From positions 1-40,965 of the forward strand of contig NIVC01004597.1 in NCBI GenBank assembly GCA_002269645.1: DNA of 40,965 bases, read 5' to 3'. The first letter of the stretch is position 1. Each line of letters begins with the position of its first letter. The position numbers and the translations under genes were made by a program. Positions 35,024 through 36,360 of this stretch are shown piece by piece. This DNA comes from Macrostomum lignano (Eukaryota). Under the pieces are notes generated by a model. The model did not search any database, was not told the DNA's origin, and saw nothing but the letters and a program-made list of their open reading frames with translations.

Positions 35024-35613
35024 ATGGAAACTAATAAGATTTGTACTAAGTGTAAACAAGAAAAACCGATGACAAAGAATTTTATTTTTGGAGAAATGAT
35101 TCAAAAAAATTTAGAAATGATTGTCGATCTTGTCATAATACCTCATCTGCTATTTGGATAAAAAACAATAAAGATAAATGGAATGAATATAGAAAAAATA
35201 AGTATCACACTGATGATAATTACAAACATATTGTTTTAATTAGAAATAGAATAAATTGGGCGTTGAAAAATTTTAATGACAAGGACTATATCTCATATCT
35301 TGGTTGCACAAAAGAATTCTTTTTTGATTGGTTAAATTTCACAAGAAATTATTATGTATCAAAAGATTATACTGGAAAGTTAGATATTGATCATTTCATT
35401 CCCGCTTCTTCGTTTAGTTACAAAGATGAAGATCAGATGAAAAAGTCTGAAAATTGGAGAAATAAAAGATACTTAACTAGCGTAGATAATAACTATAAAA
35501 AAGTTAAACAACCAACCATTGAAGAGTTTGCAAAACAATTGGTGCTATCATGTATTTTTAAGGCTATTAAAAATGAGCAACCGAACGAATTCGCGTTCCT
35601 TCGTAGTGTTTGA
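35024..35613 (+). CDS. Free-standing HNH (His-Me finger) endonuclease with N-terminal zinc finger; one frameshift at about 35080
   Basis: METNKICTKCKQEK...NDCRSC, YLGCTKEFF, and LDIDHFIPASSF...NWRNKRYLTSVDNNYKK. The upstream frame is open to ATG 35024 after restoring one T. Confidence 0.8.
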
Positions 35614-36360
35614 AGGAGGATTGTTAGATGTTCAAAAAGGATTAACAAGCTTACCACCAATCTTTACTACTGGAAGGTATACAGGGGAACTACACCTACC
35701 ATCAATGAACTTCACAGGTTAACCCGTGGCCTGAGTGAGGAAGAATGTCCTTGCTAGTCACTATTTGTGGCGACATCTCCAAATTGCGTGAAACCCGTCA
35801 TACAGCTTCAAGTACCACTTCAATTGAGAAATCTTTTGAAGGAACAGAGGTAACTCCTCTTCCCAAAGGTAAAAGCTTGAAGACACGGTGGCAATGCGCA
35901 GCCAAGCTCCTAAGTATTTTAAATATAAGGAGAAGGTTCAGAGAGCAGACGGAGATGGGCGGTAATTATCGCCGCTTAAGGTGTGCTCCAGCCTCTTTCG
36001 AAAGATTGAGGGTAAACTACCCGGCACTCGCTTAGATTTGAGATTAAATCCTGACAATACTCCAAAAGCCGATTCAATTCCATAAATGGATTGATTGGTT
36101 AGCATACTATCATGACTTAGCATACAGAGATGCTGATAAGAACCACCCGAGGAAGCATTAAGATTAAAACATGAAGCCGATCAAAAAATGATTCAAGGAT
36201 TAGATAACTTGCAGGGATTATCGGTAGGTCAAAAATTAACTAGGTGGATGGTTAAAAAGATTTTGCAGTCTAAAGTTAAATTTGGTTTGGGAATTAATTA
36301 TAATCAACATGGAAATAATTGTGTTGAGTGTTTGTTGTTAAGTGGCGGGGTTAAGTTCTG
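35573..36360 (+). CDS. Parvovirus-type phospholipase A2 (PLA2X), interrupted by a group I intron; probably continues into the integrase
   Basis: Exon 1 (35573-35719) ends GELHLPSMNFTG. Exon 2 (from 36020) reads PGTRLDLRLN...ID..AYYHDLAY...HEAD..M...K.KFGLG, giving the Ca-loop GPG and catalytic HD. Two small frameshifts occur at about 36082 and 36148. Confidence 0.88.
35720..36019 (+). ncRNA. Group I intron (ribozyme), subgroup IC1, 300 nt, no internal ORF
   Basis: P1: exon CAGGU with IGS GCCUG (35729-33), U.G at the splice site. P2: 35735-41/35748-54. P2.1: 35757-61/35767-71. P3: CAUCUCC 35774-80/GGAGAUG 35951-57. P4: UUGCGU 35784-89/GCGCAG 35896-901. P5abc with a GAAA loop. P7: GAGAGCA 35941-47/UGCUCC 35984-89. 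P8: GGCGGU/AUCGCC. P9 has a GAAA tetraloop. P9.0: AG 35990-91/CU 36017-18. Confidence 0.93.

Follow-up and report, generated by a model that had tools for sequence, protein, structure and literature searches.

A slot for alternative nuclease genes beside a group I intron in the PLA2-integrase gene of Macrostomum lignano Polintons

Collaborative homing between a free-standing endonuclease and a neighboring intron has been described in phages, namely for psbA and F-CphI of cyanophage and in T3/T7-like phages (Zeng et al. 2009 and Bonocora and Shub 2009, as related in passages of PMC3984707, PMC2988022, PMC10448857 and PMC11296320). The arrangement of nuclease slot and intron described here for Polintons of Macrostomum lignano appears to work alike, and it differs from those phage systems in four respects: the setting is eukaryotic, namely an integrating virus of an animal; a single slot is filled by one or the other of two unrelated nucleases; the same genome has one of these nucleases both in free-standing and in intron-encoded form; and the target seems to be a short word of restriction type that avoidance across the genome has made unique.

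Of the two nucleases, one resembles Eco47II (PF09553), which is listed as a bacterial restriction family and not as a homing one (passages of PMC3424549) and whose homologs are described as cutting GGNCC (passages of PMC10305163), as well as EcoO109I, which cuts RG^GNCCY (passages of PMC3089450). It shares with these enzymes a PD-(D/E)XK motif, a profile match, a fold match and depletion of the matching word, but the Polinton gene encodes only about 165 aa and lies within a group I intron or next to one, and none of the 29 ORFs scanned, out of 32 listed with at least 130 aa in four stretches of two elements, encodes a recognizable methyltransferase. A restriction fold within a group I intron is also seen in I-Ssp6803I and I-Bth0305I, homing endonucleases of the PD-(D/E)XK and EDxHD types, which read long sites, 17 bp in the case of I-Ssp6803I (passages of PMC3424549); the Eco47II-like protein belongs to another family and seems reliant on a short site.

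The other nuclease is of the HNH type and free-standing, with an N-terminal four-Cys finger that resembles residues 58-106 of Hpy99I (Z 5.6), unlike I-HmuI and I-HmuII, which are intron-encoded and have a different domain order. In Bacillus phages, the latter enzymes discriminate related genomes at flanking markers (marker exclusion; passages of PMC2988022), a property with which the allele ties of the HNH subtype H7 described below may be compared. Group I introns and HNH genes are also known in Polinton-like viruses of protists, where the introns lie in a short unannotated gene and are reported apart from the HNH genes (passages of PMC12220804), and comparable HNH domains to one noted below are reported in nematode pPolB2 (passages of 10.1101/2023.08.22.554363); the passages concerned in these two sources do not link a nuclease to an intron site. 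A search of the openly accessible literature, mostly at the level of listings, brought up no earlier account of this intron in PLA2, of Eco47II-like enzymes encoded within introns or of Polintons that avoid GGNCC.

The Polinton in the window and its nuclease slot

The window is the stretch of 40,965 nucleotides of contig NIVC01004597.1 that was analyzed here. It contains a Polinton with pPolB-like, protease-like, A32 ATPase, capsid and rve integrase genes (Table 1), the first two of which are named from similarity and known motifs rather than from a Pfam hit. The host-side genes of the window are those for an acyl-CoA-binding protein (2017-3354) and a rhodopsin-type receptor (39304-39756), which points to an animal, together with a MULE transposase fragment (18378-18761). 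The pPolB region of this Polinton family, hereafter family 1, also holds an Endonuclease VII (HNH-type) domain (L208 1416-2345; about 23800-24000 in the window). At loci L343-L362, some 10 kb away from several PLA2 genes of family 1, lies a pPolB without a tblastn match to that of the window, suggesting that two polymerase types occur within one Polinton family; GGNCC is absent from 18 of these 20 loci.

Table 1. Features of the window, in window coordinates
Feature	Position	Strand	Remark
'UP' gene, 220 aa, function unassigned; left anchor of the nuclease slot	34334..34996	+	no Pfam family
A/T-rich leader; left edge of the swappable cassette	34997..35023	+	identical translated leader before HNH and Eco47II-like ORFs
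Zinc-finger, helix and HNH nuclease gene, free-standing, subtype H4	35024..35613	+	Eco47II-like gene is the alternative slot occupant
PLA2-integrase exon 1	35573..35719	+	last 30 nt are the most variable of the exon stretches examined
Gly codon; with 36020-36021 would make GGNCC (Gly-Pro, PLA2 loop) when intronless	35717..35719	+	
Group I intron type A, ORF-less	35720..36019	+	ends in A in the window copy
Exon 2: remaining PLA2 domain fused to rve integrase	36020..37140	+	several frameshifts in the window copy
Polinton body, the stretch used for word counts, ends not mapped	20601..37200	.	contains no GGNCC
pPolB-like gene	23797-26230		
Protease-like gene	30423-30953		
ATPase gene (A32)	32050-32781		
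Capsid gene	33125-34299		

The PLA2 domain forms the N-terminus of a PLA2-integrase (rve) fusion, the exon 2 frame of which (382 aa) is open in other copies and broken in that of the window. The slot lies between this gene and UP, which precedes it in 133 scorable loci, and the A/T-rich leader at its left edge may act as a promoter. A first-pass annotation of the window had the HNH ORF ending at 35613 in a 41-nt overlap with the PLA2 start, and placed it about 100 nt from the insertion site of an ORF-less intron. These points held on re-examination: the PLA2 ATG is at 35573, the insertion point of the intron follows 35719 and is 106 nt away from the HNH stop, and the intron is a group I intron scoring 61.9 bits against RF00028 (cut-off 50, E 3.9e-15). 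The HNH frame runs from 35056 to 35613, with an ATG in a frame upstream at 35024 and a frameshift near 35060-35075 in the window copy, unlike many other copies, which are open.

Three queries were run against the M. lignano genome: the HNH, which gave 128 matches; the intron, for which 40 of 195 candidates were scored; and PLA2 exon 2, for which 150 of 506 were. In all, 160 loci were fetched, of which 11 overlaps were dropped. The 149 non-duplicate loci examined comprise 142 scorable copies and seven that are unscorable or from another family; the counts in this census are lower bounds. In these freely recombining Polintons the slot holds either an HNH gene, with intron A in 85 loci, a second intron type, B, in 17 and no intron in three, or an Eco47II-like gene, with intron A in 30 loci, intron B in seven and no intronless copy. 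With 128 matches in its own genome and 105 HNH loci that have both PLA2 exons, the arrangement is not a chance one. In L067 (971-1438) and L136 the slot holds a third ORF, acidic and 155 aa long, which replaces most of the HNH gene but leaves its 3' end, and which has no Atlas or NCBIfam match; the slot of L130 and L131 carries an insert of about 580 nt.

The HNH gene, the introns and their association

The HNH protein has no Pfam or NCBIfam match, and PF01844 is matched weakly by six of 115 relatives, which were found by a full HMMER scan after a word-indexed search had given no homologs. In the alignment of these 115 relatives, residues D123, H124, N147 and N156 are at least 90% conserved, and it is by these near-invariant residues that the protein is assigned to the HNH nucleases. 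The predicted structure (pLDDT 92) consists of a four-Cys finger, a long helix and an HNH module that carries the D-H..N..N active-site residues on a beta-beta-alpha motif, and its best fold matches are HNH domains, at weak scores (E > 0.05, Z about 4-5). The gene is full length in 71 of 96 copies, 70 of which keep the D-H..N..N residues, with dN/dS at 0.40 for its core and at 0.5-0.6 for the N-terminal half, which is very variable; both the HNH and the Eco47II-like genes are under purifying selection. That the HNH gene is a decaying relic was rejected, because it is intact about as often (71/96) as its two neighbors (102/133 and 103/133). Also rejected was a larger intron enclosing the HNH gene and exon 1, because intronless copies retain both and P1 pairs with exon 1. 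Among the 150 HNH relatives listed, P0010 (with its cluster) and P0072 run into a translated group I core that belongs to the window intron family (E down to 2e-16), so the HNH family is apparently also intron-encoded somewhere; the locus encoding P0010 was not found in viral or metagenome contigs.

An Rfam gathering scan of the whole window missed the intron, and a local scan detected the RF00028 match. Its P1 helix is formed by 35715-35721 and 35727-35733, with a U.G pair at the 5' splice site, and its boundaries agree with intronless PLA2 alleles. The spliced PLA2 joint was not seen in four contig sets, guessed to be RNA or unlabelled, a result that is neutral with regard to splicing. The last base of type A introns is A in 83 of 113, G in 29 and unclear in one, with P7 strands that are alike in A-ending and G-ending copies, and all 19 introns of family 2 (a sister Polinton family) and of metagenome contig L162 end in G. 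A natural group I intron ending in A is known from Coxiella. The core of intron A is 75-79% identical to that of the ORF-bearing intron of family 2, of which intron A is an ORF-less sibling with a short hairpin at the position of the ORF.

Intron type B occupies the same site in L002 (2168-2495) and 23 other loci and is about 60-65% identical to A; it was missed by Rfam in L002. Intron B is complementary at its 5' end to exon-2 sequence that has been recoded, and the loop encoded at its 3' junction seems to be altered. Insertions are found in the introns of L113 (about 830 nt) and L194 (tandem repeats), neither with a recognizable nuclease ORF. Elsewhere, at L161, a giant-virus-like late transcription factor gene has two group I intron matches along with nuclease-like ORFs, and the intron core there is similar to the window intron family.

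Co-occurrence of HNH and intron, which had been named beforehand as a point open to refutation, was not upheld: the intron is present in 102 of 105 HNH copies and in 37 of 37 Eco47II-like copies, and is thus independent of the HNH as a class. Slot occupant and intron type are likewise uncorrelated (r2 0.005), and the difference in intronless copies (0/37 versus 3/105) involves numbers too small for significance. All three intronless family members have an HNH gene in cis, and in L078 and L106 the HNH and PLA2-integrase frames are both unbroken, the junction being a variant GGC in L078 and the standard GGT|CCC in L106. An unbroken HNH gene beside an open intronless PLA2 gene argues against a plain intron-minus cutter.

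Linkage between copies decays to background within 25-50 nt everywhere, and tracts at the intron, inspected by linkage as a check for co-conversion, are as short as this background. Because the copies recombine so freely, homing cannot be diagnosed from the shortness of tracts at the intron. Nine flank-matched pairs of loci differ by local swaps of the slot, the intron or both. Nucleotide diversity is highest at the flanks of the exon-intron junction, with pi of 0.25 in the last 30 nt of exon 1 as against 0.04-0.10 in exon 2 beyond +30.

Against this background, certain HNH subtypes are tied to particular alleles. Subtype H7 occurs only with intron B (13/13 loci; 10/10 versus 9/93 in the non-redundant set, Fisher 4e-9, uncorrected and ignoring relatedness), at an r2 of 0.48 that is below the background maximum of 0.62 between distant SNPs. 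The upstream backgrounds of H7 are as diverse as the whole set, and H7 shows no linkage to exon-1 sites between the gene and the junction. Subtypes H3, H4 and H9 have r2 values of 0.03-0.05 with intron type, and the window subtype H4 (42 with intron A, three with intron B, one intronless) has no intron tie; the same is true of the Eco47II-like gene with respect to intron type. The GYS haplotype of exon 1 occurs in none of the 79 loci with H3, H4 or H9 and in 15 of the 37 with the Eco47II-like gene; many GYS copies may represent one older lineage. The ties of the HNH could reflect allele-specific cutting near the junction, together with selection for a resistant neighbor. Its mostly intact state, its intron-encoded relatives and the tie of H7 to intron B suggest that the HNH probably cuts rival alleles near the intron site, and these are probably not simply the intron-minus ones.

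The Eco47II-like gene and the GGNCC word

The Eco47II-like protein matches Pfam RE_Eco47II at E 3.7e-5, with profile scores of 23.8 bits for L085 (cut-off 25.9) and 30.2 for the homolog P0164. The PD-(D/E)XK residues D65, E76 and K78 are invariant in ten sequences, the motif is kept in 26 of 26 full-length copies, and the best fold match is EcoO109I (Z 9.4, rmsd 3.9, 168 aligned). This gene is also intronic at the same site. In family 2, which shares the M. lignano genome, the intron that interrupts PLA2 at this codon contains the Eco47II-like ORF, with the order exon 1, ORF, intron, exon 2 in 17 of 21 loci fetched to check the arrangement; family 2 also has 15 intronless alleles. The same position within a group I intron at that codon is found in L162, the one locus that an alignment search recovered from metagenomes; the search gave none in viral contigs, where PLA2 exon 2 of L162 also has no match. 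Furthermore, six of nine outside homologs have tails that translate the window intron core. In a tree that leaves the direction unfixed, the free-standing copies group as a single clade nested among those associated with introns, and their lower synonymous diversity (0.15, versus 0.2-0.5 for the HNH) suggests that the Eco47II-like gene entered the slot later than the HNH.

Gly-Pro codons always spell GGNCC, and the GGT|CC at the intron site is therefore forced by the Gly-Pro of PLA2. The elements are purged of this word, the exception being the Gly-Pro codons into which the intron is inserted. The 16.6-kb window element has none, where 17.9 are expected (about 9 by a stricter sub-word expectation) and none of 200 dinucleotide shuffles is as low; in the host portion of the window, 11 are present. 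Among intron-bearing stretches, GGNCC is absent from L208, L209, L210, L212 and L213, and the three in L211 lie outside the element. In three of the five intronless copies examined, the insertion site is the sole GGNCC in 10-17 kb, the other two having one and three more. When about 2,500-2,700 words were ranked by depletion in four element sets, GGNCC came first, and PLA2 is the only long ORF in which Gly-Pro occurs. By comparison, GGNCC occurs 11-37 times per 10 kb in ten stretches of the same genome that surround other pPolB genes. Further deviations in the window element (20601-37200) are a shortage of CCWGG (3 versus 11) and an excess of GCWGC (28 versus 9).

Twelve of the 15 intronless family-2 alleles retain GGNCC, in the form TGGCCCA, and have thus escaped removal by a plain GGNCC cutter; their survival may be due to the fact that RGGNCCY is matched by none of them. 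An unrelated viral contig, L336, whose pPolB is 38% identical, also has no GGNCC where 15 are expected, and an Eco47II-like gene was not found in the 12 kb of it examined. Matches to the junction pattern in viral (60) and prokaryote (53) sequences are attributed to chance, none having PLA2, intron or nuclease similarity.

Competing explanations and implications

The explanation that we regard as probable, though by no means secure, is that the slot is a cassette site for homing nucleases, with GGNCC cutting by the Eco47II-like enzyme, immunity conferred by the intron, and the HNH as a competing nuclease. The Eco47II-like enzyme would cut sites with a GGNCC core, and the element would be immune by avoiding such sites and by carrying an intron in the sole one that it cannot recode. 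Cutting of intronless PLA2 would drive homing of the intron, the nuclease acting from within the intron in family 2 and from the adjoining slot, by collaborative homing, in family 1. The HNH would be a second maintained homing-type nuclease and a rival for the slot, its variable N-terminal half recognizing sequence at or near the junction of exon 1 and intron. Each subtype may cut alleles unlike its own neighbor, whether the other intron type or another exon haplotype, so that the HNH would travel with particular junction alleles and not with an intron as such. On sequence grounds, the Eco47II-like gene is the better-supported partner of the intron and fits collaborative homing better than the HNH, which fails class-level co-occurrence and is therefore not filed here as a proven member of that class. 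It also speaks against the preferred explanation that a cutter of 5-7 bp sites should harm host DNA, and a mechanism that controls it was not found.

The proposal of the first-pass annotation was that the HNH cuts the intronless junction, that any intron blocks it, and that it is mobilized together with the ORF-less intron. It gains from the 106 nt that separate HNH and intron site, the intron in 102 of 105 HNH copies, HNH relatives within related introns, and flank-matched pairs with swaps that span the slot to exon 2; furthermore, the GGC junction of one intronless HNH copy could make it resistant. The part that stood is that the slot holds homing-type nucleases and that the intron site resembles a nuclease target, whereas cleavage of intronless PLA2 by the HNH did not fare as well, with HNH genes present in the intronless copies and the Eco47II-like gene a better fit to the site. 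The intron is equally fixed without the HNH, the open intronless allele of L106 has the standard junction although a full-length HNH lies next to it, H7 is tied to intron type rather than intron presence, and intron and HNH also swap separately, all of which makes the proposal unlikely. More doubtful still is a target elsewhere, in the upstream gene or farther away as in intronless homing, with the place beside the intron being just a tolerant intergenic slot. The free-standing enzymes of T4 do cut hundreds of bases or more away (passages of PMC2988022), a third unrelated ORF has also entered the slot, and H3, H4 and H9 are unlinked to intron type, but the associations of H7 and of H3, H4 and H9 are strongest at the junction and do not extend to the upstream gene, and diversity too peaks at the junction.

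It is very improbable that the slot nucleases simply serve the virus, in degradation of host DNA, packaging or antiviral defense, with loss of GGNCC as self-protection and the intron as an old resident or one spread as a by-product. An element-wide purge of sites would fit a general restriction role, as would purifying selection on both genes, and HNH genes near packaging ATPases have been discussed for Polinton-like viruses (passages of PMC12220804); however, the Eco47II-like ORF within an intron, in family 2 and elsewhere, occupies the hallmark position of a homing enzyme. Such service is compatible with the slot as a site for homing nucleases, and the two are not exclusive.

Read as a whole, the sequences suggest that the intron confers immunity in a DNA-cutting contest between Polinton copies. 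A broader form of the preferred explanation, to which we give an even chance, is methylation-free restriction in an animal virus, in which the word cut by a GGNCC-core enzyme would be erased genome-wide, to the point that Gly-Pro is shunned in the encoded proteins, and the one obligatory site guarded by a self-splicing intron. The short-site enzyme would serve both for homing and as a weapon directed at other nuclear DNA, and the fast-diversifying HNH would compete for the slot by cutting rival junctions.

If the preferred explanation is true, collaborative homing would no longer be confined to phages but would include an animal virus that integrates in the nucleus, the free-standing and intron-encoded stages of a proposed route to mobile introns would be present in one genome, and group I introns in nuclear protein-coding viral genes would have a selective role. 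The findings point to a new family of homing endonucleases with an origin in restriction enzymes like Eco47II, and to self-immunity of a new form, in which site avoidance and an intron take the place of methylation. With more than 150 natural alleles, a long-standing model of mobile introns would become testable.
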